From the NCBI GenBank assembly GCA_000091205.1, contig AP006498.2: a stretch of DNA of 64,000 nt; one strand, 5' to 3'. Numbering within the stretch: position 1 is the first letter of the stretch; every line of letters starts with the position of its first letter. This stretch comes from Cyanidioschyzon merolae. Its lineage: Eukaryota. The notes beneath the pieces are model-generated. The model ran no database searches. It was not told the DNA's origin and was given only the letters and a program-made list of their open reading frames with translations. Positions 2,120 to 30,533 of the stretch are shown here, piece by piece. The position numbers and the translations under genes were made by a program.

Positions 2120-3052
2120 ATGTTCATCTCGTATAGTGTCAGCAGCTTGTGGCGAGTGAGCGATTATGACACGAGCTTCGTGTCATCAACGGGTCCACGC
2201 GCCCCAAATAACGAACGGCAACGGCGGGTAAGCACACGTCCATTTGCGCAGAACTTGCGTCTGGCAGAGGAACCAGTCTGGGATCGCAGACAACTTATGA
2301 AGCAAGCTGGAGTTCTGCTTGAGTTGCTGGCGATAAGCTCTGTTGCATCAGCCAAGGCAGCACAAGTTGCAGACAATCCGCCGACACAGCACACCAGCTG
2401 CCGAGCGGGGACTCCGTTCGCGAAAGTGACCGATAAAGCTCGTTTCGTAGTGCAAATAGGTACAACTAGTGGAAGCGAGCGGCTACCTCTTGTTATAGGG
2501 CTCTTCGGCACCGAGGCGCCTGAAGCGGTCGAGCGTTTCAAGCAACTCGTGGAACAGCGACTGGTGCATCACGGCCGACAACTCGGCTATTCGTATACAA
2601 CGGCGTCGCGCATCATACCTAACCAAAGGATTGAACTGGGTCGTATATCGCAACTGGAGGACTTGGCAACAGCTGATGGTGTCCCACTTCGCCCGAGGAT
2701 GCTGCTCTCCCCGGGGACCCGGGATCGTAACGCACTCCGGCATCGATGTGCTGGGACTGTATCGATTCCGCATGAGCCGGGACGCGGTTTCGAGTTTTGC
2801 ATTCTACCTGTTGATGTATCCGATGAGCATGCATTTGTTCAGGAGCTCGATGCGGAAAATGTTGTCATTGGCTGCGTGATCCAGGGTATGGATACCGTGC
2901 GCCAGCTCAACGAGATTCCAGTGAGTCGACCTACCCCGCGTGACATGCTGCGGCGAGTGGGGCAGGCCCTGGGCGACGTGCGTGCTCGCCAGGATCCAAC
3001 GTGGCGACCGCTGCGTAAAGTACGCATCCTGGAATGCTCCTTAATTCCCTAA
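2120..3052 (+). CDS. divergent cyclophilin-type PPIase-like domain protein (TLP40/CYP38-like pattern)
   Basis: 310-aa ORF; LFGTEAPEAVERFKQLV resembles the cyclophilin ELYG..AP.TVENF segment; GTVSIPHEPGRGFEFCIL resembles G.LSMAN.GPNTNGSQFFIT; VIGCVIQGMDTVRQLNEI resembles VFGRVVEGMDVV; N-terminal extension could be a targeting peptide. Confidence 0.45.
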   Translation: MFISYSVSSLWRVSDYDTSFVSSTGPRAPNNERQRRVSTRPFAQNLRLAEEPVWDRRQLMKQAGVLLELLAISSVASAKAAQVADNPPTQHTSCRAGTPFAKVTDKARFVVQIGTTSGSERLPLVIGLFGTEAPEAVERFKQLVEQRLVHHGRQLGYSYTTASRIIPNQRIELGRISQLEDLATADGVPLRPRMLLSPGTRDRNALRHRCAGTVSIPHEPGRGFEFCILPVDVSDEHAFVQELDAENVVIGCVIQGMDTVRQLNEIPVSRPTPRDMLRRVGQALGDVRARQDPTWRPLRKVRILECSLIP

Positions 3053-4328
3053 GGGATTTGAAGAGATATGGTGATCTCGATTCACAGTGAGCGCGTCCAT
3101 GCATCCTGCTCAGCAAGGCACAGAGGATCTGGGCATTCGAATCTGCGCCAAATGATGGGAGAACAGCTCTTTCGGAGGGAGGACGTCCATGCTCGTGTAT
3201 GCACAGCTTCGATATCTGCTTCCATTTCCCTGAGGAGGGAGGATGCAAATTCAGGAACTTGTCCAAGACGCCGGGTGACGGCTTTATATGAGCGACGGCG
3301 TCGTTGTTTTTGCCTGTGTACATGTTGCGTGGATTCTTCTCCTCTAACGAGTAACAGAGCCTTGGTTGTTCGTCTTCCAAGGTGTTTGTTTAGCAAGCGA
3401 TACGTCTCGCAGAGGAACAGGAACGCAGTCTATATACAAATATGGGGTCAGTGGGAGTCTTCGTGAACCAGCAAGTCGTAAACATGAGACTCGTTTCATG
3501 CTACATGAAACAACGAGTCGATAGTTCGACACAGGGGAAACTTGGATCGTGCATAATTCACTGGAGAACTGAGTGTCAGGAACCGTCCTTTTTCAAGAAC
3601 CGTCTAGGGCAAGGCGGGAAGCGCAAGGGTGCGCTGCGTCCAAGGGCCTCGCGCAACTGGCGGCTGTCCCCCAGTGCCGACGAGGCAGCGATATGCCCCG
3701 ATACCATCTCAAAGTATATTGGAGCTCTGAAAACTCTTGCATATGAAATAGCTCGGGATTCAATCTCTCAACGCCAAGGCGGTATCCAGGTCAACAATGC
3801 ACCCGTCATCCGATCCGTTTATTGCCGGCAAACTGAAACGCGTCGCTTCGCCTGCGAAACGCTACCGCGAAGCTCGCTATGCACTGTCGGCATCCGACGA
3901 GTGACCGACGCGTCAAAAAACGCTCTTCGGGTGACACCTCCTTTTCATGGAACCAACCTGTCCGAGAGAAAGTTTCGGAGTACGGTCGCTTACGGCCTTG
4001 TCCTGGACCGCAGTAGACCCGGTGAAGCGGCACAAGTCAACAGCGCGTACTCCTTGCGCTCATCAGTTCTTGCACTATGTATACTTGGACACAGTGAGCG
4101 CACCCGCTCCGCCAGGGAACCGCAACGAACGTCCATACCTATTTTATGCAGCAGCTGGAAGCCTATGCGTGGGCTCGAACTGAGCCCACACACATCAGCT
4201 GTGAATCCCTCTGGCAGTCGGTCCGCTGACGCTCGTAAGCGGAGACCGCTCCACAGGCACTCAACAGGCCTGATGTCGGCAAATCACAGCCTACCTTTAA
4301 CCGTGCAAGTGACTAGCGCCACGGAACA

Positions 4329-9521: not shown

Positions 9522-10063
9522 GCGGATGCAACGTTTCTTGCTCCTGCTCAGCGGGTACAGCGCACCCCGTCTAGTACGAGGAAACAGTGAGCGCGTCTGT
9601 ATCCCAGACTGCTGCTGCTTCGGATACGTCCAGGGCAGCATCGGTTATGTTCGCGGGCGCACGATACGTTCTACGTTGAACGACTTGCTTAAAGTCATGT
9701 TTCGTTCTCCTCCTTGTTCTGCTTCTTAACCGAGGGCGTGGTGCGTCCGTCCATGTCCGTGCCAAGGGCGGTTCATGCGCCTTCGGCACCGAAATCCAGG
9801 TGCATCACATCGTTCCACGCTTGTGACAGTATGCTTGGACGCAACCAAGGTACCGCTACTGAACGAGACACGGTACTGGAACGTGGTCATTTCCTACAGC
9901 AGGGGCAGCGTGTCACCCACAAAAGGTCCATCCGCGGTTCGTAGCGACCTTTTTTCGCACGCTCAACCGAGCATACATCTCCTAGGTTTGTGCTGTGGGT
10001 GCCTCTGAGGACAAAAGCTCCAAACGTGAGAAGCTTGAGGCGTTGGCAGTGCCGTTCATCGCC

Positions 10064-11197
10064 TTATGAGGACCATCTTCGTTTCGCAGCCTCTTGGTCA
10101 GGCTGCCAATACCAGCTGGGTGCCTGCAAACGCTCTAATGCGGCCGGGTTGTAACGATAGTTCAGAAACAGTTCTTCATCCTGCAAATCGCGCAAAGCGA
10201 TGAGAACGACGCCCGGAATTTCGGTTAGAGACATGTTATCCTGGTGCCCAAGCGAATCGAACCAGTGGCGAAACCGAGACCAGAGCATCGACGTAGGTCC
10301 AAGTATCCCGGATGACAGCTGCCGATACTTCGTAAATAGTCGATTGGGGATAAAGGAAAGCAGGCTCGGTTCCAGACGCTGCAAATCGAAATTCCATGCA
10401 CAAGGCATGACGTTCGCTTCCCGTCCTCGAGGCGGGTGGTTAACGCGGTGACCCAGCGCGTACGGGTTGAGGCCCACCCAACACTCATGGAGCGATTCAG
10501 TTTGCCGCGTATGTCGGACAACGCTCTCAAGTGCATGATCAAGGATCGGTATATTCATGAGCCCACGTGACACTTCGAGGTTCGGATTTGCGTCGACAAT
10601 TACACGATCGTAGCGGGCGAATAGGTACGGATTCTGGGCTGTGATGTACGGGTACCCGGGTATCGAGGTCCAGTGCCGGACCCTGTACGCAATGCCCGGA
10701 TAGAATGCAACAACGGAACCCATGCGGGCGTGCCCGTTCAAGATGACACCATATCCTGCATTGACATTGGATTGGCTCGGGCGCAAACTCAAGGTGAAGG
10801 CTGGCCCGCTCGTAGCCGCAGAGGCGCTAGTTGGCATACTCGCTGCTGCTGCAAGTAGATTGTGTACTTGACGTGCATTGACCCGTTCTATCAAGCGTGA
10901 CTGGGCGCCCTGATCATCAAGTATGTGCTGTGGAGAGTCTGTCTTCATTTCGAGAGAAGCGGAATGCTTCCAAACCGATAAGGCACGGCGAAACATGAGG
11001 AGTGGACTGCTTGCGCGCGTTGCCTGCTCCGCCGACGAAACTATTTCCTGAGCGAGCGCCCGCGCCTGTTCGAAGCCTTTTTCATAAGATACTGCGAGAA
11101 GAAAGAGCTGCATGTTATCGCGTTGGTGTTGTAGCTCGCGCCAGTTCGTCTGGCGCTCGCTCAGCGCGTCGACGAGACGCGTCCATAGCCGTCGCAT
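10064..11197 (-). CDS. SET-domain protein (putative protein lysine methyltransferase, SETD/LSMT-like)
   Basis: 377-aa ORF; GYGVILNGHARMGSVVAFYPG (SET N-region GxG), LGHRVNHPPRGREANV (NHSCxPN-like motif), EELFLNYRYN (ELTxxY-like post-SET motif) in the correct order. Confidence 0.45.
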   Translation of the reverse strand: MRRLWTRLVDALSERQTNWRELQHQRDNMQLFLLAVSYEKGFEQARALAQEIVSSAEQATRASSPLLMFRRALSVWKHSASLEMKTDSPQHILDDQGAQSRLIERVNARQVHNLLAAAASMPTSASAATSGPAFTLSLRPSQSNVNAGYGVILNGHARMGSVVAFYPGIAYRVRHWTSIPGYPYITAQNPYLFARYDRVIVDANPNLEVSRGLMNIPILDHALESVVRHTRQTESLHECWVGLNPYALGHRVNHPPRGREANVMPCAWNFDLQRLEPSLLSFIPNRLFTKYRQLSSGILGPTSMLWSRFRHWFDSLGHQDNMSLTEIPGVVLIALRDLQDEELFLNYRYNPAALERLQAPSWYWQPDQEAAKRRWSS

Positions 11198-13690: not shown

Positions 13691-13829
13691 CGCGAAGCCC
13701 TGCAGCGCTGTGGGCCACGCCGCACAGAGCGCCTATTGGTGTGCGCCGCTCGCTCAAATCCTGCTCCGCCGATCGCTCTATCAACGTCTGGCGTACAAGC
13801 AACGTCCCAAGTTGATCCATCCATCTATG

Positions 13830-15300
13830 TATTTATACTCAGCAAAACGGATATCTTTCTAGGACCATAGAGTGTGTATAGAAACCTACTGACAGACGCC
13901 CCGTAGCATCAATGGACCCATGGGCTGCAATCAGCTTAAGTTTATACCTGCACACTTCGTGCATCAAAGGCTGCGTCGCAAAATTCACTCGTGTCTGCTC
14001 CGCGAGTCTCGTCTTCAGCACCGCTTTCCGTCTGACATTGATGGCGGTGTAAAAGTCCCAGTTCACGAATTCCATGCGTTTATCGCCTCTGGTGAAACGG
14101 ACGTATGCAAGGATGCCTCGAAATCATACCCTCCGTGCCACTAGTCTCGTGGATCTCTCCTCTTCTTCCTCACCTACTCTTCTTCGCACGACGGTCGGCG
14201 AGAAAAGGATCTTTTTCGTTATTTTTCCGGGAGCCGGCGACACCGGGCCTCCAGTATCCTCGATTTCCATGTACATAACTTTTCCTTGATTCTTTTATTT
14301 CTTCAAATAAATGCAGTTCTTTGTGCCCGTAGATAAGGAACTTCCCGGAGGGAGTGGGACTTGCGGAAGAGAGCCGAAACGTGTCCCGGTGTGTCATTGT
14401 GTGCCGAACGCTTTCGTGATTCGCCCAGTGGAGTGATCGTCACGTTTCACGATACAAAACGCTCCTTCGATGTGGTTGAGTCAAGTCGCGTACTGAGGAG
14501 TGAAAGGCGGCTCTACTCCGATAGAATCGGCAATAGCTCGAACACATGGGTAATGGTGAAATGCAACGTCGTCGAATGGACGGACGTCACCAGACTTCAG
14601 CGAGAAGTCTTCAATGATTCGACGAACTGTGTTCTGTTGTATATGCCTTCCCCAGGAGCGAAACGGAGACCTCCAAATGAGTCCACATCAGCAAGAACAG
14701 ATGATGTCCTCGTTCTGTTGGGGATCGATCGGACATACGACGATCCGCCCCTCCGCGAATACCCATGTACCATCCGACAGTTTCATCCGAATCAAGTCTC
14801 ATTGACTCAAAAAACAAACCAAAGTCCCTGTGCTTCACATCGATCGTGGCGTTCCAGGAACGCTGTAGGTGCAAATTCTGTGGAAGATGGCGGTGATTGA
14901 ACTAGGACTCTTTTTTGCGATTAGATTCCAGTGATCTCAGGATCCGCACCATCAAGCTGTTGAGAATCAGAGATGCCGGTTGCGGCTACTATGGTCGCTT
15001 TTGTTGCTCGTAAGTAGTTCATGTTGAAACCATTGACCGAAAGCAGTATCTGATATTACCATTTTTTGGCGCGGAGCGCAGATACTTGTTTCACTCAGTA
15101 TTCCTCAAGCATTTGAGTACTGTGTCAAGACTCACCTGAAGGAAGAATGTTGTCCTTCTTGCACGATTCAGTAAAGAATATATCCTGCAAACAAGTCGTC
15201 GACGATGCATACGGCATGTAGCATCATGATGTCGATCTACTGCTACACACTGAGAAGGAGCATTCGATGACACAGACACCAGAGATGGAACGTAACTGAG
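13830..15300 (-). mobile_element. decayed Fanzor (TnpB-like) element copy with multiple frameshifts/stops; 3' tail (right end) at about 13830
   Basis: minus-strand peptides MEFVNWDFYTAINVRRKAVLKTRLAEQTRVNFATQPLM (RuvC-III region and conserved tail), KSYVHGNRGYW (compare [11 protein letters not shown] of the intact copy) and ETVGWYMGIRGG (RuvC-I region); nucleotide homology of about 70-80% with 44160-45600 along about 1.4 kb. Confidence 0.6.
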
Positions 15301-15612
15301 ATGAAAGACGATAACACCGTATTCGATACAGAACTATAACATAAGGGTCAATGTGGACACATTTTCTAAGTGACCTACATGAACTCTGGGGCTGTCGCCT
15401 AACTTTCATAACCGCAAACTCTTCGCGTGGTTTCCAGTGCTCGCTGCTGCGTCTCCACCACACTGCCCTGTAACCTAGTAGTTGCAGTGGAGGCTGCCGG
15501 TGTGGAGAAGCAAACGGGCTGTATACCGTGAACGTGACAGCGAGCGGCGAGTCTTCCTAGAACGTTCCTGTTCGCTGGCCGGGAGTGTAAACCTGCACCG
15601 GGCCTCGCCATC

Positions 15613-18280: not shown

Positions 18281-19133
18281 GCGCTCTGCATTCGCCAAAT
18301 GCGATCGTGCGGTGCCTGCTTCCGCTGCTGCTTCTCGCGCATTCGGGCCCTGGGCAGTGCCTCGTACATTCGTCGATACTGTACCACACGAGTCGATCCG
18401 GCTGCATCAGAGAGCAGCAGCTTTAGCGGGATACGAGTTTTGGTCGAAGGTAGGTCGTTTAGATTCAAGGAGCTCATGATGTGGAGTTTTGAAGTGAATA
18501 GCGCCCGCGACATCACCCGAGTCGATGCAATCTGCTTTCGCTGATGCGGGAGACGGAGTATTTCCGATCACAAAACGTTTACGTTGACCATGTATCCCAG
18601 ATTGCGGAGTGGTTACTGGTTTTCGGGAAAGCGTTCATTATAACGCAACCTACCTTCAAGTTCTATGGCCTGTTCTCAGATATTCTGGTCGTTTTGTTCG
18701 TTCTATTATGCGCCGAGTTCCTGTCTTACTGCACCCGCCGTGGCGCTTATGCCGTTGAGGCAGATGCTTCACGGAGCTGAATAGCATTGCCATATCACTA
18801 GCGGCTTCGGTTCGAGGCATGATTCATTCGACATGGAGTCGGGCTATATGATTATCCTGGGAGCCTGCAAGCTGCGCAAACAGGCCGACAGTCTGCGACA
18901 GCGTGAAGCGATAAGCTGGGAGTCCATTGCGACCAGGGCGACGCCCAGATGTAGCGTTCCAGTCCCAGTTCCAGAATGAACTGCATTGCGGGCGAGTTGC
19001 TTGGATCTCCCTACAGCTTTAGCTACTGAGGGGTGAATGAAGCACGAGCCTAGGGGACATTCTTGGACATATCAAGGATCCGTACGAGCAGGAATTTCGA
19101 GAGGCCATCAGAAACCGTTTCGCGTCCCACTCC

Positions 19134-21017
19134 ATGAGTATTAAAAAGGCTTCTTCAGAACTAATGCATATGGTGAAGGAGATTTATCGCGACATGACTG
19201 ACATCATAACAGTGGAGGTTCCGGAAGAATTTTGGAACAGGAACTTTATTCGTCACCTGATGCCTGGCACATGGGAAACGTCAAAGAGAGATGAACTCGT
19301 GCGTGCGTTCCACGAGGGTCGCGCCGAATTCCGCTTCAAGGGTACTCGATACAGGGGCGATAGGGATATTTACGACTATGGGGCTATGAAGTATCTCACG
19401 AACCTGAAGAACCATTTGACAACCAACCTCGAACGTTTCATAATAAGAGCCGTATTTGCGCTCTGCCCGGGCATCTCTCGCAAAGGGATATGGGCGATTA
19501 TCAATGACATCACGAACGATCGCAAGCATGAAGATGGGGTCGAATTCGTCGACAAGAAGGAGTCAAACGAGAGCACGAATGAAGCTTCTGTGATCCGTGC
19601 GGTTGTACAAGAGCACCGTGCAGTCGTGGGGCTGGCGAATCCGCCAGAAAAGATATCAGAGTTGAAAAAAGATAAGGAAAGATACGATCGCCTCGTCCTG
19701 CGCTATTTCCTGTTTTTGGACCGAGAACTCGAACGCAAGGCGGAGATGAAACTGAGTGAGGAAAGCAATGAAGAGTGGGAGAGACAGAAGGCTTTCCTAG
19801 TGGGTAAGCGCTTCAATGGCGTTCTGTTGTGCAACATAAAGTCACATTTCGTGAGTATCGACTCCGGAGTCCTCTAAGGCATCATGAAGGAGATCTGTCC
19901 GGAGTTCGATGTCAGCAGGGAGGAATTCACCGGCGAAACCCGTCCGACGTACTGGAAGAGTATCTTCGATTTCAAACGTCTCAAAGTGAGCAGGCAAAAG
20001 TTGTTCACTGGGATAATCGAAACCGATGGAGTAGCCATGTCTGTAAACTATCGGCTGTTGAAGAAAGATCGTCCAGTTCCGCCCTCGGCTTCGCCAGTGA
20101 CGAAGGATGAAGAAAAGGAGGAGGCCGGTCCTGCGACACAGGATGTGCAGGATAACGACCTTGTCGTTGGCGCGGCGAAGGATGAAGATGAGGAGGAGGC
20201 GGGTCCTGCGACGCACAAAGTGCAAGATAACGACTTTGCCGTTGGCGCGGACCCCGGAAACACAAATATCATCACCATGGCAGTACCCAAGCGTGTGGAA
20301 GATGGCGCTGACGGCAACTTACGTCAGAAAGACATGCGTTTGTTGAGATTCTCGAGAGCGAGACACTATCGAGAATCGGGAATCATGAATGCGAGGAAGA
20401 AAATCGAGACTTGGAATGCTGGAATAAAGGACCACTTGGAAGCTATGAGCGAGGTGACGAGCCGAGGAGCGGGCTTTCAAGCTTTCCGGAAATTTATGAA
20501 AGTTCGCGTTGCTCACTGGGATGCGCTGTGGGAAGAATATACAAAGCCTCGGTGGGCTCGTCTGCGTATGAATCTATACTGTGGGAAGCAGCGGGCGTTC
20601 GCGAACTTTTTCAATCAGTTGAGCGCCCTGAAGGAGGATGAAAGTCAGAGGCTCGTCGTAGCATACGGAGCAGGGCGCTGGAAGACCCAAAAAGGGTGTA
20701 CGCCAGCTCCAACTACAAGAACGTACAAGGAGTGTGCACGGCGTTTCGTTACGATACCTGTAGATGAGTTTCGAACATCGTATACACACCACGAGCTGGG
20801 TTGTACACTTCAGAGAGTGGAGATGGAAAAGTGCCAGAGGAGCCCTGAGGAAATCGCAAAGTACGCACCGCTGACGGAGAAGCAAATGGAAAGGATGGCG
20901 AAAGGTCGACGACTACTTGCATTAGTAAGTACAACCAATGATAGCAAGAAACGTATGGAGTTCGTGAACCGAAACTTTAACGCCGCTATCAATATAAGGA
21001 GATGTGTGGCGCTGTAG
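19134..21017 (+). CDS. Fanzor-like RuvC nuclease (TnpB homolog); two track ORFs (19134..19877 and 19884..21017) are in the same frame and separated only by one TAA
   Basis: Ruv[19 protein letters not shown] (GxDPG with catalytic Asp), Cys/His cluster [20 protein letters not shown], Ruv[22 protein letters not shown] at the C-terminus (TnpB/Cas12 RDxNAAxNI class); total about 625-660 aa; in-frame extension upstream to 19041. Confidence 0.7.
20118..20264 (+). repeat. internal tandem duplication (2 x about 72 bp) within the Fanzor ORF immediately N-terminal to and including RuvC-I
   Basis: [24 protein letters not shown] / [24 protein letters not shown]; DNA units gaggaggccggtcctgcgacacaggatgtgcaggataacgaccttgtcgttggcgcgg... 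and gaggaggaggcgggtcctgcgacgcacaaagtgcaagataacgactttgccgttggcgcgg... Confidence 0.75.
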
Positions 21018-21326
21018 AAAAGACCCTCCAGAGTTGAGAGAATTTCGTGGGACAACCTCTCAAAGTGGAACTATATGAGAAAAAGTTGAGAGAAGTAGTA
21101 GGTGGCCGGTCCAAAAAAGGGGAGGCGTCTGCACGTCAGTTGGCGACTTCGTGTCTAGGGCGCATTCGCCGCCACTACTGTACACCGCTGGCGACTGCTT
21201 TCGACTTTTGAAAGGCGTTCGCTGTCGCTGCCATGTGCTTCCGCAAAACCGCCTCCTCTGAACGGCCTCGACATCCGCTTTCGCAATAAAAGGCTCCGCG
21301 GGGTTTCCAATTGCTAAAACACGAGC

Positions 21327-22376
21327 TTAAAGACGGCGGTGTCTTTGAAAGATAAACACCGACTTGTCCCCGAGATCGTCCCGGATATTCTGCACAAATT
21401 TCCGTAAGGAAAATACCGTCATGAAAATGGCGACTACTGTGCTCAACGCGAGTCCCGAGTTTCCGGACGCGGTGCTCCACCAACCCAAGAAGTGTCCACC
21501 AACGAGTACCGGGACCAGCATGGCAAGCACCGACGCTTCTGCGCGTCGGAAACAGAACGCTTCCTTGAAGAACACGCCTGTCAGCGCCGCCGCCACCCAG
21601 CCGGCTCCCGTTAGAACGCCAACTGGATGCTGTATCAACCAGTGCACATACAAGTCGTGCGTGTTTGTCCATACCATCCACTCACTCAGTGCCGAGGTGA
21701 GTATTCCAAAGCCCAGCAAATACTGCAGCGCTCGATGAAGCGGCTTCAAGTAGATGTGGATGTAGTGTAGTGCGATACCCAGCCCGGCGACGCCACTCCA
21801 GTAGAGCGCCTCCACGAACGCAGTCGACCTGAATTGAGCCAAGTCCAGTGGGAGCTCTCCGTTCCCACTCGTTAACCAGGCCGCTCCAACAGCTGTCACA
21901 GCAGCTAAGGTAACCAACGCCATGCCCGCACGGTAAGCGCGCACCTCGCGAACGTCGGCCTCGGTTAGGAACCACTCACCAAAGGCGCCGGCGTACGGAC
22001 CACCGAGAACTTTATCTTCGTTTTGGCTGGACTTGAACGAGTTTGGTGAGAGCGACAGGCGCCAGCAGCGCTCCATACCACCATTACAACGCCGGCGACC
22101 TTGTCGTCGCTGCTGAACGCACCTGCTGTTCCGTGCTCTGAGCAAGGCGCGCATCTCAAATTGACGAGACGCTTGCCGACAGCACGTCTTGCTCCCATGT
22201 GTGCTAGGTAATAAAACCGTTCGAGAAAAAGACGAGTAAACAAAGTTGAAAGTCATGACGAACGGACCGTCGACGAGAGCGAAAAGCGCGTCTCGAAACC
22301 CAAGGAGATTATCGTTCCAGTGTTTCCGCCACTGCACGGCGGCCGATGACGACTTCGAGCTGCATACGCGGCACAA
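21327..22376 (-). CDS. predicted multi-pass membrane protein of unknown function (true start probably an internal Met)
   Basis: 349-aa ORF; at least 5 hydrophobic helices (MALVTLAAVTAVGAAWL, AFVEALYWSGVAGLGIALHYIHIYL, LLGFGILTSALSEWMVW, VGVLTGAGWVAAALTGVFF, VLAMLVPVLVGGHFLGWW). Confidence 0.4.
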   Translation of the reverse strand: MCRVCSSKSSSAAVQWRKHWNDNLLGFRDALFALVDGPFVMTFNFVYSSFSRTVLLPSTHGSKTCCRQASRQFEMRALLRARNSRCVQQRRQGRRRCNGGMERCWRLSLSPNSFKSSQNEDKVLGGPYAGAFGEWFLTEADVREVRAYRAGMALVTLAAVTAVGAAWLTSGNGELPLDLAQFRSTAFVEALYWSGVAGLGIALHYIHIYLKPLHRALQYLLGFGILTSALSEWMVWTNTHDLYVHWLIQHPVGVLTGAGWVAAALTGVFFKEAFCFRRAEASVLAMLVPVLVGGHFLGWWSTASGNSGLALSTVVAIFMTVFSLRKFVQNIRDDLGDKSVFIFQRHRRL

Positions 22377-22514
22377 CGCTGGACTTGGATACGAAACCCG
22401 GTACCTGATTCAAATCGAAGTTTGAACGGGTAGCTGTGTATCTCGAAAATCGAGGCTGTATATATACAAGAACGAAAGAGTGCAACATAGCGAGCTGTTG
22501 TTTGTGGCACTTTA

Positions 22515-22895
22515 CATATTGTGAGTAAACCAGAAAATGTTCCACGGATACTGGGGGTAGATTCATACCCACCAATAGAAACATCCGAGCATTTATGGAC
22601 TGGCCGCCTGCTTTCGGCATCAGCTTCTCCTTATAAAAGCATCAGAGGCTGCATCATGATTTTAGATCGCCTCAGGTCTTCAAGTCTGTTCTTCAGTGCC
22701 GCAAATCGTCTGATATCTATGCTCGCGTTACAGTCTCGTTTCACAAACTCTAGGCGTTTATTGCCACTGGTTGAACTCATGATTGCAAGCATTGCTAGCA
22801 CTGGTGCCGTCAACCACTCTACAGTTTCGTCTGTCGCTCATCTTCTCCTTTTCCCATTTCTTCGTTATTTGCTCTTCTTCGCTCCATGTTCGGCG
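22515..22895 (-). mobile_element. Fanzor 3'-terminal fragment A (C-terminal about 110 codons with frameshift plus conserved tail), inverted relative to fragment B
   Basis: minus-strand peptide AMLAIMSSTSGNKRLEFVKRDCNASIDIRRFAALKNRLEDLRRSKIMMQPLMLL (RDxNAxxNIRR); tail ...GGAACATTTTCTGGTTTACTCACAATA ends about 22515. Confidence 0.65.
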
Positions 22896-23245
22896 AGAAG
22901 AGCTATTTGCCCGACGACACAATGATGAGCCTGTCGTGGCACTGAGGTCGCGAGTTCTAGCAATCCTTGCATATCTGCGTTCAACCAGAGGCAATAAACG
23001 CATGAATTCAGTGAACCGAGGCGTCGACGCCAGCATCAATATCAGACGAGTTGCAGTGCTAAAGACGAGCCCCCAGGAGCTGACGCGAGCCAACGCTGTC
23101 CGGCAACCTCTGATACTCCAGGTATTCCGGGAGAAACGGAAGCCGATAGCATTCGACCGCTCCATAAATGCCACGAGACGTCTCCAAGTGGATATACCAT
23201 GCATCCCCATGATTGGGGAATGTTTTTCGTTTTATCGTTATTGCC
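22895..23245 (+). mobile_element. Fanzor 3'-terminal fragment B, forms a palindrome with fragment A
   Basis: peptide RSRVLAILAYLRSTRGNKRMNSVNRGVDASINIRRVAVLKTSPQELTRANAVRQPLILQ; conserved tail to about 23245; about 70-75% nucleotide identity to the reverse complement of fragment A. Confidence 0.65.
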
Positions 23246-23372
23246 CGCGGCGGCTTCAGAGGCGTTGTCGCTCCGCAGGGTTTCCAGCCAAATAGCTTCA
23301 ACGCACTACGCTGGCACGTTTTCGGCACTACCGCCACCAGCTTGTCTGTGTGTTGGTGTATTTATCTGATCC

Positions 23373-26300
23373 ATGCGTCTTTCCGAGAGGCCGTGGTCAC
23401 CGGTGACGCCTTTCTTGGGCGCCTTTCAGTGTTTGCGGCGATCAGTTGATCCTGAAGCTGCAAGCTCCCGGAAGACGCCTGTCGACGGGGTACGGACGAC
23501 GACTCGAAGTCACTCGGTAACCGCTGTCGGAATAGAACGCGCTAGCTCGCTCGTGTCAAACGTTACTGAGGATGAGCTTCTTGATCAGTCGATACGCCCA
23601 GAACTTGTGCGACTCTTATCGAAAGGCGAGGGTGCACTCAAGTCCGAAAAGGAACCAGCAGCGCCCGTTACGGTACGTCTGCAGCTGAAACGCTGGCGAC
23701 GACGAGAGGCGTCCTCGGTAGAACACTGGAATCCAGCGGTTACGTGCCATGTAAGGCAAGGTCCCGACTGGGAGACCGCCTACGGTTCATGCCCAGCATC
23801 TGTCTACCTTGATGAGTTGGACTCGCTCTGGAGTATTTGTCAACGAAGTGCGCTGGATTCATCGAACACGGAGCAACCACAGCGCGTTGCATTAGCCGAT
23901 CGGTTGTGGTCTCTGTCGCTTCAACTACAAAGCATCGTGCATACTGGACGAATCAACTGGGCCAAACTTGCAGGTGCATGCGAGAGCGGCTGCCTGAATG
24001 CTTCCGGGCCTCGTCACGATACCGTTTCGGACTTGGGCGGTTCATCGACGACGCGTCTCATGACGGATGACGGACAAAACCTCCTGAATCATTCGTCCGA
24101 ATCTCCTTCATGTTACCAAGCGCCCGCTCAGGAGACGCATCATGACGATTCACCATCGTGGGTGTCGTCCAAGACGAGTCAAGGCAGTGCGGAGCTACCA
24201 TCGGTGCCGCTTTCACCTCAGATACGCCCGAAAGCAGCATTCGTATCCGCTGATATGGAACTAGTGGCTATTGCCGATGATCAGGGGCGGGCGGCATCGT
24301 ACGCTGACGGTGAGCATGCCACAGCAGTGTGTGCAAAGCTCGTTTCATGGCCCAGCGACGACGACGACGACGACGACGACTCGCAAGTATGGGATGCCTC
24401 TGCAGACGAGACGATGCGACGCTCACGAAGAAAGCACGTGCTCCGGATCCCGAAAGCAAAGCAGGAATACCTCGTGTCGGTACCTGCGTCATGTCCACAC
24501 TGGGGCATCTGGTGGCTGCCTGGAACCGCAATCCTCGAACCGCTCCTGGAGATACTGGAGAGCCCTACCGCCTCGATCGCCGTTGTTACCGCGACGCTGG
24601 AAACACTAGAGCGCCTCCTGCGGCGAGGAGCTGCTCGTGGCCTTGTGCTCGATGAACAGCGGGATGTTGTTGTCACAGTGGCGACAAGTAGCGTAGCAAC
24701 CGACGCAGGTTGCACCCAGGGATCAGCGACTGCCTCTATAGAAAGCTTTCGCGTACTTGGCCGCCGCTGGCTTGACCTCTACGCCCGGGAACGGGTGCTC
24801 GCGAGACTCGTGGTGGTTGCCCTCACGCGCTGGTATCAGCAGCAAGTTCGCGTAGCCGGCGCCGAGTCCGCTCTACTTTGCTTTCTTCATTTGGTGCAGA
24901 CCATTGTGGACGCTGGCGTTCCCAGTCTCGATGGAGACGCTGTCGCGTCTTCTACCGCTCTGAATAGAGACACCGGTGCCGCCTCGAGTTGCGGAGCATT
25001 GCCAGTCAGCGCGCTCGAGTCGCTCTGCCTGATGTGTCTGCACTGTGCCGCGGGACGTCATCGACTTCGTTCACCGCTGTTACGACGTCGCGGGGAAGAG
25101 GTGCTGGTGAAGATCAGTGAACTGCTCTTCCGTCGTGCGTCTGGAGCAGCAATTCGCAAGTGGATGCTTCGGCTGATTGCAGCGATGATAGACCCCACGG
25201 TTGCGGATGCTGCGCTTGTCATTTGTGGTGAAGACGCAGCGTCGATCACCGCGGAATCGTCATCTCCGGGGGAAACGGTGAACGATGATCACGTTGCAAA
25301 CCCCGTTTCTGAACTCCGTCGCATCCTCTGGGAGGACAAGTCCACTGGACGCGCTGCCACGGAATGGCTCGGCCTCGGCCTGCTGAACAGTTCCGTGGAT
25401 GCCAACCGTCGACGAAAAGAGACACAAGTACTGGGATTACGCATGCTGCATCCAGTTCTGGATGCCCTGATCCAGGCTCAGACGCCCATCTCCGAGCAGG
25501 TGCTGGGCGTGGATGCAACGCTTCGAGCGCTGGTGCTGGGTCCACTCAGCCTGGCCTTGTTGCGCTGTTTAGCCCAGAGCGATGACGCCTTGTGCGCAGA
25601 GGTACATGCGTTAGCGTTTCCACTCGCGCTCAAGCTCGTGGAATGCCTGGGACCGGAGGCGCTCACCTTTTTTCATACCCTGTTGACTGTGATCCTGCCG
25701 AGCGCCCTGGAGGGTGTCCGCGAACCCGCGATGCGCTCGAACGGCTCCGTTGCTCAAGAGCTGTGTTTCCCGCTGCTGCGTCAGCTGCTGTCGCGTCTGG
25801 ATCTACTCTGGAGCGCCTACCTTGCCTATGACTGCAGCCTGCAGTTTGCCGACGCTCTCGGGCCGCTGTTCCAGGTCATCGCGAACGCATCGCACCCGTT
25901 TGCGGTACCGCTCATGGCTACGCTGCTGGAGAGCCTCCAGCAACGCGACTGGGGTCCACGGCCGCTGCGGCTAAAGCCCTGCACTGCCGCGGACTGGGAC
26001 ACTTTGTACCAGCAGCGAGCACAGAAGCAGCGACGTCAACAAGTGCTGGATACATTGGCGGGAAACGGGGCCTCCCAGCGAGACTGGAATGCCACTGACT
26101 TGTGGAAGAGTCTCCAGAAAAGTCAGCTGCTCGGCGAGGGCACTCCACCAGAGCCAGCAGCAACACCATCTGCAGCGTCTTTGCTGGCGCAGTTTCTCCG
26201 CGCTACACCCGAACTTGACAAAGTCCTCATTGGCCAAGTGATCGGCAGTCCAGACCCGTTCAGTCAACAAGTGTTGGCTGCTTACGCGCAGACCTTTGAC

Positions 26301-29300
26301 CTGCACCAGCTTCCCATTGATGCAGCGCTGCGTCTCTTTCTCGAGTCGTTCCGCTTGCCAGGAGAGAGTCAGAAAATCGATCGCATCATGCAGGCATTTG
26401 CCACCCATTACTTTAACCAGAATCAGGGACCATCGTTGCCGCTGGCTTCAGCAGACGCTGCTCATGTACTCAGTTTCGCGATGATTATGTTGAATACGGA
26501 TCAACATCATGGACAGGTGAAGCAGCGCATGACTCTCGCAGATTTTACGCACAACAATCGAGGTATCAATGACGGTGACGATCTCCCTGCGGCCTATTTG
26601 CAGGGCATCTATGAGCGCATTCGTCAACAGGAGATACGACTCAGCGATGATCACGGTGTTGCTGCGCTCGACCGTGTCCACTGGGAGGCACTGCTGCGGA
26701 ACCAGCAGCATGCCCTGCAGGTAGGCAGCGGGCATGCCGAGCAGCTCTGGACGTCCCCAAGACGTGCTGCAGCGTGTTTGCTCGGTTTCATCTGGCCTAC
26801 GCTGCTCGAGGCGTTTGGATCACGACTCGTGCTGTTACTGTTTCCACCGGGAGTCGCCAGTGCAGAGGCCGGTGCCACGACTGCACATTCGTCGTCGACG
26901 ACGACGTCGACGCTGTCCAGCGCCCTGACAGAGCGACCCCAGTCCGCGGAGCACCGGAGCATGCGGCGTGCTGGGCGTTTGCTTAGCCAGGGCACCAGCA
27001 GTGGTAGCGGTAGCGGCTCTGAGCATCCTGCCGAGCCGCTTCTATTACCGGTGCTTGGTGCCGCTGACCCGTCATGGGATCAGGTCGAAGAGGACGCTTT
27101 GCCGTCGGGCGATGAGTCACGTGTCCAGTTGCAGGAACGCTGGCTCACACGTTGGGATCACTGGAGACGTACCATTGTTGAGGATCAAGGCCCGTGGCTC
27201 GTTCGCTATCGAACCCGAGCTGCGCTCCGCGAGGCCGTTCTCCGTCTCTTTTGTCGACTGGGCTGGACTGCGCATCTGCTGGCGATGCCTACGATTCTTG
27301 GACAGGTGCTCGAGCTTCTGACGCTGCTCACGGGTGTCGTCGATGATCGTTGGCCAGAGCCGACTCCGGAAACCGCAAGCCACCGCTGCTCGCTACCAGA
27401 AGCTCCATGTCCGTGTATCCAAGCACCTGAACAAGATGAAGCGGTCTGGGTGTTTCTAAGTCACTGGAAACGCTCCCGCCGGAAGACGCGCTCTGCTACC
27501 TGGCTCGGACGACATCGACCAGCACAGCAGGTTCTGGTTGCAGTCCTCGGGCTAGCAGCTCGGTGTCTACCCGGTTTGGACGCCGCCGCCTGGTGTGCGT
27601 TAACTGCGCTCCAGTTACGGCTGGTGGAGATGCGCCTCACGAGTCCGCTGCTCATCGAACCCGAATTCGTGAACTGGCTGCCGGCACTCTGGGCGCCCGA
27701 CGGGACCCTGTTGCTGCCGGGACGCTTTGCACCGCCCTGGGCGTCTATGCTGCGGGATCTGGCTCTTCGAGAGTGCCCTGAGCTGCAGTTGCTGCGGCCG
27801 TCAGCGGCGGACGTAGCGTCGCCTCAGCCGGAGCCAACCAGTCTGTCGGGGTGCGTGGCGGCCGGTACACCCCAGTCACCACAGCAGCGACACATGCGAA
27901 AGACTCGTTCCGCTGAGGAACGCCTCGAGAGGCGCACCAAACACACTGCTGCCGATGCCGACACCCAGAGCCTCATCGCCTCCAGAGGCATCGGAGGCGA
28001 TGACGGTGATGATGATGAGGATCATGCAACTGCGTCTGCTGCACAGCATACCGTGGATGCCCCTAGACTGGGTGACAGGATGCAGGTGCTACCCCAGGAG
28101 CTCGTGGATATGGCCGACGATTCCTCCGAGGCCAACAGTTACGGTGCGAGCGGAAGCGGGCTCTTGGCTACGCTCCTCAGCGGCATCGGGTTCGGATTCA
28201 GCGGCACCGAGACGAGTACCAGCACCAGTGCAGACTCCGCTGCGGCCAAAGGGCGTCCTCGACACGACAAGACGCAGACCGGCGGCGACAATGACCTTGA
28301 GCGAGCGCGTTCTTGGCGAGCTGTCGAGCGACTCATCGCGGATCCCGAGCCAGACGAGTTGTCGGACCTGGATGCGTATCGCAGTCCAACGGAATGTGCA
28401 CCTTCTACTCGAAACGCAGATGCCTCGCTTTCGCAGCCTGCAACGACGACGACAACCACCGCTGCCGATACAGGCGCTGGGAAGACAACAGCCCCTGAAA
28501 CGGAGCCGTGGCGGCGTCTGGTCGTCGAGGACTCGTGGGACCTCGTGCGAGCGGTTTTCCCGCGGTATCTACGGAAACCTGATATGGACGCGGAACGAAG
28601 GGCGCTTACCCGCCGCTGCCTAGTCTATGCCCTGCAGCAAGCGAACCTCTTTGACCCGGCTCGTTGGATGACGGCTTCCGCCGGACTGCTGGAGGCTCTC
28701 GGCCATGCAGCGCGTTGGGCGTACCAGCTGCCGATGCCCGCGGCAACACGGCCTGTTGCACTGGAAACCCTGCACCCAGACTCGGGGAATCAGCAGCACG
28801 AGCAGCACCAGCAACACCAGCAGAAACAGCAGCAGCCTGAGAGCGCTCTCACATCGACCTGGACTGTGTCAGCATGTCGCTGGTTTCCGCGTAGAGCGCT
28901 GTGGCGGTACGCACACCTCAGCGCCGCAGATACCGCAACCTGGCGCAAAGCCTGGCTCCTGGAACATGTATCACTGGTTGTGCTGAGTGATGTGGGACGA
29001 ATGCTTGCGCACTGGGGCGTGCTCCAGGAGCTCGTGCACATGGAAATGGCCACTGCCGTCGATGACCCGACGCTTTCCCTAGAATGTGCGGTGTTTGCTT
29101 TGGTGCGTTTGGTGCTGCGTGTGCTTGCCGTAGCGGAGCGCAACTTGTCCGATAGAGTCTGTTGGACAATTCTGGCGGCTGTCTACAAGAATCTGCGTCT
29201 GCTGATGCCGTTGGCGACCTCCGCCTTCGACGCGCTTTGTTTACCGGTGTTGGTTGCACTGGGAACGATACTGGAGCGGTATCCACGCTGGATACCCCCT

Positions 29301-30533
29301 GAGGACGGCTGGGAAACGCTGTGTCTTGTATTGGAGCGTGCTCTCCGACAGTCAGAGTCGACGGTGCAGGTAGCTTGGCAGGTGCTCATGCTTCTGCTTG
29401 CGCGGCTAGATCAGCAAATGGAGCATGGAACGCTCCACGAGACCGAGGAGTTTTCGCTCCAATGTCTCGAATTGCTTCTCACGGCGATCGAGCAGCCGTA
29501 TCGTCCAGCAGCTACTACTGCTGCATCCACTGGCACAAATGCCGTCTCTCCATATGGATGCTTTCAGCGCTTGTTTGCACAGCGTGCGGCTCTGTTGACT
29601 GGAGCCGAGCGTTGCTTACCGCTCCTCGGACGTCTCGCACGTGTCGTCGCTACCCACCGGTCCATATCGGTACGCTACGAAGCCCTGGTAACACTGGAAC
29701 GCATCCTGATGGAGCCGCTCTGGCAGAATATCTCGGAATCGTCGCGCGTAGAATTGTTTACCGGTGTGTTGCTGCCGCTCGCTGAAGCGCTGCAATGGGA
29801 GGTGCTCTCCAACGAGAGCACGTTGCACACAGATCCGGTGCTCCGAGAGCGCCTTCTCATCCGCTTGGTCATGGTGCTGAACCGGTTCTGGCTTTTGCAG
29901 CACATGCTGTTGCAGCAAGTACCAGAAACGACCATCAACGACTGGTGGATGCGCCTAGTGCGCATCCTAGGTGACCTGTACGCTGTTGCGGTACGGCGTT
30001 CGCGAGCACAGCGCCTCGCTGGCGTCTCCGACGGCCGCTGGGCATCGGCACCGGTGCCTGTAGCGGCCTCGGAGACGCTCGCGGAGCACATCCATGAGAC
30101 GCTCAAGAATACGCTCCTGGTTATGGTAACGGGTGGTTTTCTGGATCCAACTCTGGAGCTTGCTGGTGCAGAAACGACCGCTGTCACTGAGAATGCGTGC
30201 AGTACAGCTGCTCGACGTTGGTCGGAGACGTTCACGCTTCTGGCTCCGCTGTTTCCCGCGCTCGAGGAGGACCTGTTGGGACTTTTGGCGCAAGCACCGA
30301 TGCATCGCTCTCGCGCTGTTCAGCGAGACACGGACGCCGCCCATACGCTTGCCGAACAAAAAATCAGTCCGACACCCGTGGATGTTCCACAGCGACCGGA
30401 TGATGTCACGACGCATACACTGACCGAGACGAGCGCTCAGACAACGGACGCCAGCACGTCCACCTATGAATCGGCAGCGCCGAGTGCGGTGCTCTGCACC
30501 GACGAGCACTCCTGTACCGAACTGGACAAGTAA
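23373..30533 (+). CDS. Sec7-domain ARF guanine-nucleotide exchange factor, large BIG/GBF1-like
   Basis: 2386-aa uninterrupted ORF; Sec7 catalytic region FRLPGESQKIDRIMQAFATHYFNQN ... AHVLSFAMIMLNTDQHHGQVKQRMTLADFTHNNRGINDGDDLPAAYLQGIYERI (FRLPGE and MLNTD motifs); flanking HUS/HDS-like helical regions; several low-complexity inserts. Confidence 0.8.
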   Translation: MRLSERPWSPVTPFLGAFQCLRRSVDPEAASSRKTPVDGVRTTTRSHSVTAVGIERASSLVSNVTEDELLDQSIRPELVRLLSKGEGALKSEKEPAAPVTVRLQLKRWRRREASSVEHWNPAVTCHVRQGPDWETAYGSCPASVYLDELDSLWSICQRSALDSSNTEQPQRVALADRLWSLSLQLQSIVHTGRINWAKLAGACESGCLNASGPRHDTVSDLGGSSTTRLMTDDGQNLLNHSSESPSCYQAPAQETHHDDSPSWVSSKTSQGSAELPSVPLSPQIRPKAAFVSADMELVAIADDQGRAASYADGEHATAVCAKLVSWPSDDDDDDDDSQVWDASADETMRRSRRKHVLRIPKAKQEYLVSVPASCPHWGIWWLPGTAILEPLLEILESPTASIAVVTATLETLERLLRRGAARGLVLDEQRDVVVTVATSSVATDAGCTQGSATASIESFRVLGRRWLDLYARERVLARLVVVALTRWYQQQVRVAGAESALLCFLHLVQTIVDAGVPSLDGDAVASSTALNRDTGAASSCGALPVSALESLCLMCLHCAAGRHRLRSPLLRRRGEEVLVKISELLFRRASGAAIRKWMLRLIAAMIDPTVADAALVICGEDAASITAESSSPGETVNDDHVANPVSELRRILWEDKSTGRAATEWLGLGLLNSSVDANRRRKETQVLGLRMLHPVLDALIQAQTPISEQVLGVDATLRALVLGPLSLALLRCLAQSDDALCAEVHALAFPLALKLVECLGPEALTFFHTLLTVILPSALEGVREPAMRSNGSVAQELCFPLLRQLLSRLDLLWSAYLAYDCSLQFADALGPLFQVIANASHPFAVPLMATLLESLQQRDWGPRPLRLKPCTAADWDTLYQQRAQKQRRQQVLDTLAGNGASQRDWNATDLWKSLQKSQLLGEGTPPEPAATPSAASLLAQFLRATPELDKVLIGQVIGSPDPFSQQVLAAYAQTFDLHQLPIDAALRLFLESFRLPGESQKIDRIMQAFATHYFNQNQGPSLPLASADAAHVLSFAMIMLNTDQHHGQVKQRMTLADFTHNNRGINDGDDLPAAYLQGIYERIRQQEIRLSDDHGVAALDRVHWEALLRNQQHALQVGSGHAEQLWTSPRRAAACLLGFIWPTLLEAFGSRLVLLLFPPGVASAEAGATTAHSSSTTTSTLSSALTERPQSAEHRSMRRAGRLLSQGTSSGSGSGSEHPAEPLLLPVLGAADPSWDQVEEDALPSGDESRVQLQERWLTRWDHWRRTIVEDQGPWLVRYRTRAALREAVLRLFCRLGWTAHLLAMPTILGQVLELLTLLTGVVDDRWPEPTPETASHRCSLPEAPCPCIQAPEQDEAVWVFLSHWKRSRRKTRSATWLGRHRPAQQVLVAVLGLAARCLPGLDAAAWCALTALQLRLVEMRLTSPLLIEPEFVNWLPALWAPDGTLLLPGRFAPPWASMLRDLALRECPELQLLRPSAADVASPQPEPTSLSGCVAAGTPQSPQQRHMRKTRSAEERLERRTKHTAADADTQSLIASRGIGGDDGDDDEDHATASAAQHTVDAPRLGDRMQVLPQELVDMADDSSEANSYGASGSGLLATLLSGIGFGFSGTETSTSTSADSAAAKGRPRHDKTQTGGDNDLERARSWRAVERLIADPEPDELSDLDAYRSPTECAPSTRNADASLSQPATTTTTTAADTGAGKTTAPETEPWRRLVVEDSWDLVRAVFPRYLRKPDMDAERRALTRRCLVYALQQANLFDPARWMTASAGLLEALGHAARWAYQLPMPAATRPVALETLHPDSGNQQHEQHQQHQQKQQQPESALTSTWTVSACRWFPRRALWRYAHLSAADTATWRKAWLLEHVSLVVLSDVGRMLAHWGVLQELVHMEMATAVDDPTLSLECAVFALVRLVLRVLAVAERNLSDRVCWTILAAVYKNLRLLMPLATSAFDALCLPVLVALGTILERYPRWIPPEDGWETLCLVLERALRQSESTVQVAWQVLMLLLARLDQQMEHGTLHETEEFSLQCLELLLTAIEQPYRPAATTAASTGTNAVSPYGCFQRLFAQRAALLTGAERCLPLLGRLARVVATHRSISVRYEALVTLERILMEPLWQNISESSRVELFTGVLLPLAEALQWEVLSNESTLHTDPVLRERLLIRLVMVLNRFWLLQHMLLQQVPETTINDWWMRLVRILGDLYAVAVRRSRAQRLAGVSDGRWASAPVPVAASETLAEHIHETLKNTLLVMVTGGFLDPTLELAGAETTAVTENACSTAARRWSETFTLLAPLFPALEEDLLGLLAQAPMHRSRAVQRDTDAAHTLAEQKISPTPVDVPQRPDDVTTHTLTETSAQTTDASTSTYESAAPSAVLCTDEHSCTELDK
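24357..24380. repeat. (GAC)8 microsatellite inside Sec7 CDS (poly-Asp)
   Basis: gacgacgacgacgacgacgacgac; protein DDDDDDDD. Confidence 0.9.

Follow-up and report, generated by a model that had tools for sequence, protein, structure and literature searches.

A palindromic pair of decayed Fanzor1 3' ends between two divergent genes of Cyanidioschyzon merolae, probably two insertions joined at an 11-nt microhomology

The spacer between a DUF2301 membrane-protein gene and a Sec7 gene of Cyanidioschyzon merolae contains two decayed 3' ends of a Fanzor1 element, placed head-to-head so that they form a 730-bp palindrome. This arrangement probably arose from two independent insertions of a short, internally deleted form of the element, here called a mini, followed by a microhomology-mediated deletion in the centre. 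The pair lies in a stretch of 64,000 nt (contig AP006498.2 of assembly GCA_000091205.1), called the window below, and all positions refer to this stretch unless another sequence is named. The features discussed are the following.

13805-15311, transposase plus mini unit, copy D
18565-21217, plus strand, copy F, a neighbouring young Fanzor1 copy (blastn to the CMe-1A consensus)
21327-22376, minus strand, DUF2301 integral membrane protein gene (Pfam PF10063, E=9.3e-38)
22517-22902, minus strand, arm A, a 5'-truncated, decayed CMe-1-like Fanzor1 mini remnant (HMM, nucleotide model and alignment)
22712-22741, minus strand, RuvC-III motif remnant of arm A, KRDCNASIDI (ORF translation, alignment)
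22871-22903, minus strand, short palindrome GCTCTTCTTCGCTCCATGTTCGGCGAGAAGAGC, 33 nt (stem CTCTTCT/AGAAGAG plus CGC/GCG, 10-nt loop)
22892-22902, no strand assigned, junction of 11 nt, GGCGAGAAGAG (per-copy L and R segments, alignment)
22892-23245, plus strand, arm B, a 5'-truncated mini remnant (HMM match 22891-23259; nucleotide model 22925-23244; alignment)
23014-23043, plus strand, RuvC-III motif remnant of arm B, NRGVDASINI, with the catalytic D replaced (ORF translation, alignment)
23373-30533, plus strand, Sec7-domain ARF-GEF gene, 2386 aa (Pfam PF01369, E=2.2e-58)
44144-45609, transposase plus mini unit, copy C

An inverted repeat had been reported here from the letters alone, and a blastn self-comparison recovers it: when 22450-22895 is compared with 22895-23300, positions 22589-22802 align with 23171-22953 at 70.5% identity over 220 bp (E=1.4e-23). 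The Smith-Waterman score of arm A against arm B is 116 (shuffles 18.5 +/- 2.4), and as single-stranded DNA the segment 22517-23245 folds into one long imperfect hairpin at -142.5 kcal/mol (shuffles -90 +/- 6, z = -8.6). The arm identity, given as 70-75% in the earlier note, is 70% only locally; it drops to 64% over 306 model positions and to 59% when the arms are aligned globally. In the orientations claimed for them, as 3' ends set head-to-head with their termini outward, both arms match Fanzor-family HMMs: arm A at 22643-22828 on the minus strand (HMM positions 543-604 of 636) and arm B at 22945-23193 on the plus strand (548-631). The nucleotide model places the outer ends of the pair at 22517 and 23244, with the exact 3' termini blurred by decay. 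The arms are asymmetric about the palindrome, arm A being ~21 codons longer than arm B. The flanking genes identified with Pfam are indeed divergent, as had been described, and the pair occupies ~65% of the spacer of ~1 kb between them.

The Fanzor origin proposed for the arms is borne out, since the profile and the fold of the parent family both match Fanzor1. Pfam has no family for the Fanzor ORFs of the window or for five close homologues (one of the relatives gives a weak TNB-domain match), and phmmer and a shallow profile returned chance matches only from the PDB; the identity was settled by a deep profile. A search of 1.8 billion representative proteins supplied 1200 relatives, and a profile of 78 full-length ones matches the solved Fanzor1 chains PpFz1 (3.6e-20), SpuFz1 (3.9e-13) and GtFz1 (2.9e-8). 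An AF2 model of the parent ORF family on the deep alignment (pLDDT 86, pTM 0.81) was compared with the PDB using Foldseek; the top 7 matches are all Fanzor1 (E=1e-13 to 3e-9, TM up to 0.59), followed by Cas12 and TnpB. The family consensus and its homologues carry the RuvC motifs DPGNTN, DEFRTS and NRDFNAAINI, with the catalytic triad D...E...D in place. Profile and predicted fold together identify the parent ORF family as Fanzor1.

By blastn to the consensus, the element can be assigned to the published CMe-1A family of C. merolae, a Fanzor1 family with a consensus of 3169 bp, ~150 copies that are old and ~80% identical to the consensus, and no known terminal inverted repeats (TIRs) or target-site duplications (TSDs) (Bao & Jurka 2013, PMC3627910). 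The consensus was taken from the supplement of that paper. Copy F, which had been listed as 'the Fanzor ORF', matches consensus positions 1-492 at 78% (18565-19051) and 1081-3169 at 87-89% (19060-21217), and its ORFs run from 19134 to 19877 and from 19884 to 21017. It is a pseudogene, with an internal deletion at the ORF start, an in-frame stop at 19878, frameshifts in the 3' part and a D to N change in RuvC-III. A full-length CMe-1A copy is present on another contig (L001); like copy F it matches the consensus, whereas the arms represent a sub-lineage that is older and has an internal deletion. Identity to the consensus is 82-89% for copies F, L001, L002 and L103a; arm B, copies C, D and E and other minis show 66-73% over the 3' ~170-250 bp and, where present, over ~790-969.

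The window holds five short Fanzor 3'-end fragments (D, A, B, C and E), and many more are found on further contigs of the same genome. Alignment of the copies with the consensus shows how the mini is built: CMe-1A ~790-1060, which is the region just upstream of the ATG plus ~55 N-terminal codons (basic, rich in K, E and R), is joined in frame to ~2833-3117+, which covers the last ~95 codons, including RuvC-III, and the tail. The whole is roughly 600 bp long. In the unit model, position ~1003 looks like the 5' terminus of solo minis; this is an artefact of the model's boundary between transposase and mini, and the solos reach ~790 of CMe-1A. The K/E-rich segment is not mid-ORF sequence, as the CMe-1A consensus shows it to be the N-terminal basic region. 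In five solo minis the 5' boundary falls near position 790 and the DNA upstream of it is unrelated, which makes the lineage a genuine derivative that is both non-autonomous and non-palindromic. A MITE-like, non-autonomous Fanzor derivative, as the earlier note had envisaged, thus does exist in this genome, in the form of the minis; the palindromic design does not hold, as a mini has a distinct 5' end and one 3' end. Eight minis lie directly 3' of a decayed DDE_3 (IS630/Tc1-mariner) transposase ORF in the same orientation (Pfam E=1.6e-18), and transposase ORF and mini together make a repeated unit of 1.5 kb, represented in the window by copies C and D. No TIRs were found at the ends of this unit, and arms A and B lack the transposase part. 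The published description of CMe-1A mentions TE-N2_CMe only, the 5' 635 bp of the element, and the mini sub-lineage is absent from it (PMC3627910).

The alignment shows that arms A and B come from this old sub-lineage with the in-frame internal deletion. Both carry the mini deletion junction and the basic region, and both lack the mini 5' end (~190 bp are missing in A and ~250 bp in B). Arm A starts with the hairpin of the mini lineage (codons SSSRRTWSEEE...) and continues through the deletion junction (DETVEW/LTAPVLAMLAI) and the RuvC-III remnant to the 3' tail; it is damaged by a premature stop, a deletion of 25 nt and one or more frameshifts. Arm B begins ~21 codons deeper into the unit (RREELFARRHNDEPVVALRSRVLAILAYL...) and has an open frame across 123 homologous codons. 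Its similarity to CMe-1A can be detected with blastn (22944-23111 against 2840-3010, at 71%), while that of arm A is detectable through the family HMMs only. The nucleotide model match for arm A spans 22977-22517, with high posteriors only from ~22904; an extension of arm A to 22977, over arm B, was rejected, the posteriors there being low and the same bases showing strong coding homology in the orientation of B. Since the arms come from an internally deleted form, the ~110 last Fanzor codons per arm that had been counted are in fact ~95 C-terminal codons plus 15-45 codons from the N-terminus of the ORF.

As read from their sequences, neither arm could encode a nuclease, the last RuvC motif alone being retained. 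An RNAalifold prediction on 14 decayed tails gave -0.36 kcal/mol and 0 covarying pairs, and the tails have no Rfam match. With nuclease coding capacity lost from both arms and no conserved RNA structure detected in the tails, we infer that the A/B remnant has no activity of its own. The window copies F, A and B are all dead or incomplete, because the third RuvC motif is altered in F and B (D lost) and A and B lack the rest.

The centre of the pair can be read in detail with the help of two segments of the mini. Segment L is CTCTTCTCGCC (codons SSRR), followed 10 nt later by a near-complement, GCGAAGAAGAG. Segment R, ~70 nt further on in the mini, is GGCGAGAAAAG (codons RREK) and is complementary to L, and the two form an inverted repeat inside most minis. 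The junction GGCGAGAAGAG can be read both ways: its reverse complement, CTCTTCTCGCC, is segment L of arm A (11/11 against the lineage consensus), and read forward it is segment R of arm B (10/11 against the consensus GGCGAGAAAAG). To the left of these 11 nt, 9 nt match only the hairpin loop of arm A, and to the right, 10 nt match only arm B (CTATTTGCCC, where other minis have GTATTTGCCC or GTGTTTGCCC). With A-only sequence on one side and B-only sequence on the other, the 11 nt between them fit both, and it is through this overlap that the stumps are joined. What remains of arm A includes L, the K/E stretch and a degenerate R; arm B begins at R.

A short palindrome at the junction had been reported with its centre at about 22893. 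It is present, 33 nt long, and its centre is at ~22887. On its own it folds at -9.9 kcal/mol (z = -3.4). The same hairpin recurs in 10 mini copies, in what was once the N-terminal basic region of the Fanzor ORF. Across these copies 86% of cells are paired, with two compensatory pairs (T:A to G:C in L097b and C:G to A:T in L099) and a covariation of 0.164 against 0.107 in shuffled alignments (8/500). Given its presence in 10 copies and the two compensatory changes, the hairpin is a feature that the lineage has independently of the A/B junction; what had been seen as a palindrome made by the junction is instead the mini-lineage hairpin, and it belongs to arm A.

The relatedness of the arms was assessed in a neighbour-joining tree of 20 copies over 318 model positions, which is star-like. 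Arms A and B are 64.1% identical, while the best match of A is copy C (65.9%) and that of B is L094b (67.9%); a clade of A and B has a bootstrap value of 12%. By these comparisons neither arm is nearer to the other than to further members of the family. With ~300 sites and a star-like tree, the data would also be compatible with a sisterhood of A and B as old as the family radiation. Differences between A and B at codon positions 1, 2 and 3 are 0.25, 0.18 and 0.47 (55 codons), a skew which suggests that the two diverged partly as coding genes before the copies died; decay of GC3 could account for part of the third-position excess. On both sides the inverted similarity ends at the normal 3' ends of the family, and the flanks score below the shuffle mean. 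Further copies of the 730-bp palindrome, which the earlier note had suggested looking for, do not occur in the 207 kb of contigs from the same genome. Among 5.8 billion proteins, a profile search recovers arm B itself (P0194, 99%) and yields no paralogue above 59% amino acid identity to B or above 57% to A, and no protein among these 5.8 billion matches the junction-spanning ORF.

Other head-to-head arrangements occur on the same-genome contigs, which carry ~25 copies in 207 kb. On contig L103, two truncated copies abut head-to-head at ~1567-1573 of that contig, with breakpoints at CMe-1A 2400 and 2692 and a microhomology that is ambiguous, between 1 and 7 nt. One of them, L103a, is 85% identical to copy F and 66% to its partner L103b, and the bootstrap value of the pair is 0%; judged by these identities, the pair clearly combines two different lineages. 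On L094, two separate copies lie head-to-head ~600 bp apart, plausibly a precursor state. Doubly occupied spacers number 3, and we estimate that roughly 3-4 would be expected by chance if there is one intergenic spacer per ~3 kb and copies are placed at random. All three adjacent pairs are head-to-head (p ~0.016 if orientations are random), which gives a hint of a cause more systematic than co-insertion by chance. The 3' ends point toward gene starts in 11/15 copies. Roughly six copies are 5'-truncated, and 4 of them are in abutting pairs (A, B, L103a and L103b); a fifth, L094a, is head-to-head with a complete mini.

The surroundings of the pair can be compared between strains and with a related alga. 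The range 21327-22376 is the maximal ORF of the DUF2301 gene, with the first in-frame ATG ~120 nt inside, and the end of the arm A tail is 140-260 bp upstream of the gene start; the end of the arm B tail is 128 bp upstream of the Sec7 ATG. The CMe-1A match and the gene content point to a Cyanidioschyzon-like red alga as the host, and so do a GC content of ~55%, long intronless ORFs, a CpeS gene on a linked contig and a partial match of DUF2301 to Cyanidiococcus. The four strains sampled are each represented by a metagenome contig of the same species, with 98-99.5% identity; the pair is colinear in all of them, its divergence of 0.3-1.2% in the arms is similar to that of the neighbouring genes, and a polymorphic strain with an intermediate state was not found among the four. 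A metagenome scan with the DUF2301 protein returned same-species contigs and distant cyanobacterial-type homologues only.

The related alga was found by a protein search, through its DUF2301 orthologue (63% amino acid identity). Its gene order is that of the window, namely SMT, ribosomal L2, ACBP, DUF2301 and then a divergent Sec7, and its coding regions are 66-76% identical. None of the models finds a Fanzor-like sequence in the 21 kb of its syntenic locus, so the insertions are either younger than the split or were lost there. Its DUF2301-Sec7 spacer is of similar length (987 bp) and cannot be aligned with that of the window, which leaves only a loose bound on when the insertions occurred; they are not deeply conserved.

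The earlier note had offered two independent insertions as its alternative reading, and this is the better fit, with the addition that both copies lost their 5' parts and that what was left of them was fused at the 11-nt microhomology. We infer the order of events and the mechanism of the deletion as follows. In a genome whose intergenic regions are littered with remnants of the CMe-1A Fanzor1 family, two minis from different family members would have landed head-to-head in the 1-kb spacer between DUF2301 and Sec7. In such an arrangement, the reverse complement of L in one copy and R in the other would be direct repeats of 11 nt. Through microhomology-mediated end joining or replication slippage, both 5' ends and any spacer between them would be deleted together with one of the repeats, so that a single 11-mer is left, at 22892-22902.

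Taken alone, the junction fits a fold-back within one copy as well as a deletion between copies, because L and R also form an inverted repeat inside each mini, and this counts against the two-insertion reading. In a fold-back, a single mini would be duplicated in inverted form by hairpin priming: after a break 5' of the element, resection would leave a 3' strand whose end is the complement of L, and this strand would fold onto the complement of R in the same copy and prime synthesis, so that the C-terminal region and tail are copied again in the opposite direction. With L and R forming an inverted repeat inside most minis, this would predict exactly the asymmetry seen (L, the K/E-rich segment and R in arm A; a start from R in arm B) together with the 11-nt junction, and a four-taxon check by hand on global-alignment distances weakly favours A plus B, with a very short internal branch. 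The arms should then be each other's closest relatives, however, which they are not, and neutral decay after a duplication should not concentrate the differences at third codon positions. Synthesis would also have had to stop exactly at the natural 3' end, since the flanks have no inverted similarity, and the analogous L103 pair demonstrably consists of two lineages. We thus consider the fold-back unlikely and favour two insertions with a deletion, which is the probable course of events. The earlier note had preferred a mobile, MITE-like element made of two right ends, which would have entered the divergent promoter region in one piece. Both outer ends are the natural 3' terminus of the family, as the insertion of such a unit would give, and head-to-head 3'-end pairs recur (L103, L094); but those pairs differ in breakpoints and lineages and so are not one family, and neither the junction nor either arm has a second copy in the 207 kb of contigs or the 5.8 billion proteins. 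Moreover, A and B have diverged as far as random family members, and the real non-autonomous form of the lineage is non-palindromic, with distinct 5' and 3' ends. CMe-1A has no known TIRs or TSDs (PMC3627910), and therefore no known transposase would act on paired right ends. With a single junction copy and arms that are not sisters, this reading is extremely improbable.

Head-to-head pairs of right ends might also be produced by a systematic process at insertion, for example if both ends of a double-strand break (perhaps Fanzor-induced) were copied inward from the 3' end of whatever donors were available and then joined by microhomology. The orientation of all three adjacent pairs, the truncated copies concentrated in abutting pairs with a fifth facing a complete mini, the mixed lineages of the L103 pair and the microhomology at the A/B junction are in line with such a process. 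Against it, the sample of 207 kb is tiny, doubly occupied spacers are as many as estimated for chance, the bias of 3' ends toward gene starts already raises the head-to-head expectation, and a single central deletion accounts for the joint truncation; we also know of no experimental precedent for systematic inward copying. We regard it as very unlikely for this pair. The broader idea that head-to-head, 5'-truncated Fanzor1 3' ends are a recurrent product of the movement or repair of TIR-less elements is unlikely; it could work by fold-back at the conserved hairpin, or by copying that starts at the 3' end and runs inward on either side of a break. If it held, such pairs would be a footprint of the Fanzor1 mobility mechanism and not chance neighbours. 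A different proposal is that the DUF2301 and Sec7 genes have co-opted the pair as part of their bidirectional promoter or 5' regulatory sequence. This proposal draws on the position of the pair, as it fills most of the spacer with its tails close to both start codons, and on its fixation in all four strains at a divergence like that of the neighbouring genes. The strain differences are, however, too few to show constraint, the tails have no detected conserved structure, and the related alga has a spacer of the same length with neither Fanzor sequence nor similarity. Co-option is highly improbable; judging from its position, a passive influence of the pair on the promoters is possible.

Several known systems can be set beside two insertions with a central deletion and beside the minis. 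The Fanzor1 nucleases SpuFz1 (8GKH), PpFz1 (9CF0) and GtFz1 (9CER) resemble the parent ORF family in profile and predicted fold and share its RuvC motifs (DPG..., DEFRTS and NRDxNAAxNI), whereas the arms keep the last of these only, and no conserved structure resembling an omega RNA was detected in the decayed tails. Internally deleted non-autonomous DNA transposons, such as the P-element KP, Ds and mariner-derived MITEs, arise by interrupted gap repair. The mini likewise retains both ends around an internal in-frame deletion; the A/B structure differs from these, with two 3' ends and no 5' end. The palindrome-associated elements (PATEs) of IS200/IS605, to which the pair had been compared, are also short, non-coding TnpB-family derivatives with hairpins. 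However, PATEs form multi-copy families in which the LE and RE hairpins both stem from one element, whereas the A/B palindrome consists of two diverged right ends and is unique; and the small hairpin of the mini is in former coding sequence and not at a terminus. Finally, in the Mariner/Tc1-Fanzor1 composites PUl-1 and PGv-1 (PMC3627910), the gene order of PUl-1 is the same as the transposase-then-mini order of eight minis; here, by comparison, no TIRs were detected on the 1.5-kb unit, and arms A and B are without the transposase part.

The pair is debris of a family published in 2013 and has little bearing on the flanking genes or on Fanzor biology. It is a worked example of how a seemingly 'designed' palindrome can come from two dead copies joined at an 11-nt microhomology, with a central hairpin that belongs to the family and not to the junction. 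What novelty is left comes from the recurring head-to-head pairs of right ends and from the mini lineage, which had not been described, and these raise the questions of whether the minis, often attached to a transposase, are a true non-autonomous family, what mobilises them, and whether head-to-head pairs are over-represented. Their over-representation would bear on how TIR-less Fanzor1 elements transpose.

Several Fanzor 3′-end copies in the window and in metagenome contigs of the same genome or species belong to a ‘mini’ lineage, roughly 600 bp long, of an element like the published CMe-1A of C. merolae (Fanzor1, 3169-bp consensus); the lineage is absent from the 2013 description of that family (PMC3627910). 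Minis are in-frame internal deletions, in which about 55 N-terminal codons are fused to the last about 95 codons; members share a 5′ boundary near CMe-1A position 790, and open frames of 120-180 codons remain in several copies (e.g. P0208 and P0160). Copies include the following.

Mini copies
Window 54336-54930, minus strand: copy E
L094:9835-10442: mini
L102:5547-6101: mini
L103:8185-8749: mini
L105:about 500-1088: mini

In the former N-terminal coding sequence lies a 10-bp hairpin, found at 22871-22903 and at the equivalent site in nine other minis. Pairing is kept in 86% of cells, and L097b and L099 each carry an independent double change that is compensatory. Its retention could reflect selection, or it could arise by templated correction of a quasi-palindrome.

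Mini remnants also occur in a repeated 1.5-kb unit whose copies are about 70% identical pairwise. Here a decayed transposase ORF of the DDE_3 (IS630/Tc1-mariner) type with an HTH domain is followed directly, in the same orientation, by a mini-Fanzor remnant. The arrangement resembles the Mariner-Fanzor1 composites PUl-1 and PGv-1; a search of the unit for TIRs detected none.

Copies of the 1.5-kb unit
Window 13805-15311, minus strand: copy D
Window 44144-45609, minus strand: copy C
L084:8849-10427: unit copy
L094:16467-17901: unit copy
L097:8989-10539: unit copy
L099:1630-3127: unit copy
L101:4160-5543: unit copy

The opposite end of CMe-1A, its 5′ 635 bp, is present as a solo copy (75% identical) at L084:5852-6482 on the minus strand, corresponding to TE-N2_CMe, which was reported as a separate repeat in 2013 (PMC3627910).

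The young CMe-1A-like copy F (19060-21222) diverges by 3.3-3.5% between the window and metagenome contigs L004, L005 and L007, whereas the genes adjoining F and arms A and B diverge by only 0.3-0.5% in the same comparison. Ectopic gene conversion among young copies is a possible source of the excess, as is chimeric assembly of repeats in the metagenomes. Within the Fanzor ORF, a 75-bp tandem duplication (20101-20175 and 20176-20250, 86.7% identical) encodes an acidic repeat; some homologues (e.g. P0010 and P0011) have more such repeats, and so the acidic linker differs in copy number.

In a related alga, syntenic contig L112 keeps the SMT-to-Sec7 gene order across its whole 20.9 kb, in which no trace of the window's four Fanzor-derived insertions (D, F, A and B) was detected. 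Between ACBP and DUF2301 the contig has a 760-bp spacer, versus 3.4 kb in the window, but its DUF2301-Sec7 and SMT-L2 spacers are nevertheless roughly as long as the window's.

Besides arms A and B, the remnants in the DUF2301-Sec7 spacer, two further pairs of Fanzor 3′ ends lie head-to-head.

Head-to-head pairs
L103:807-1573, minus strand, and 1567-2021, plus strand: abutting truncated pair from two different lineages
L094:8738-9255, minus strand, and 9844-10442, plus strand: spaced pair, copies about 600 bp apart

Counting A and B, each of the three neighbouring pairs in the 207 kb surveyed has the head-to-head layout (p about 0.016 under random orientation). Of 15 copies, 11 have their 3′ end facing the 5′ end of the following gene (window A, B, C, D and E; L001, L002, L084a, L094a, L094c and L097b; p about 0.06 in a one-sided binomial test), and that gene's start codon often lies within 50-260 bp. 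Either preferential insertion or the selective survival of copies in a compact genome could explain this bias.
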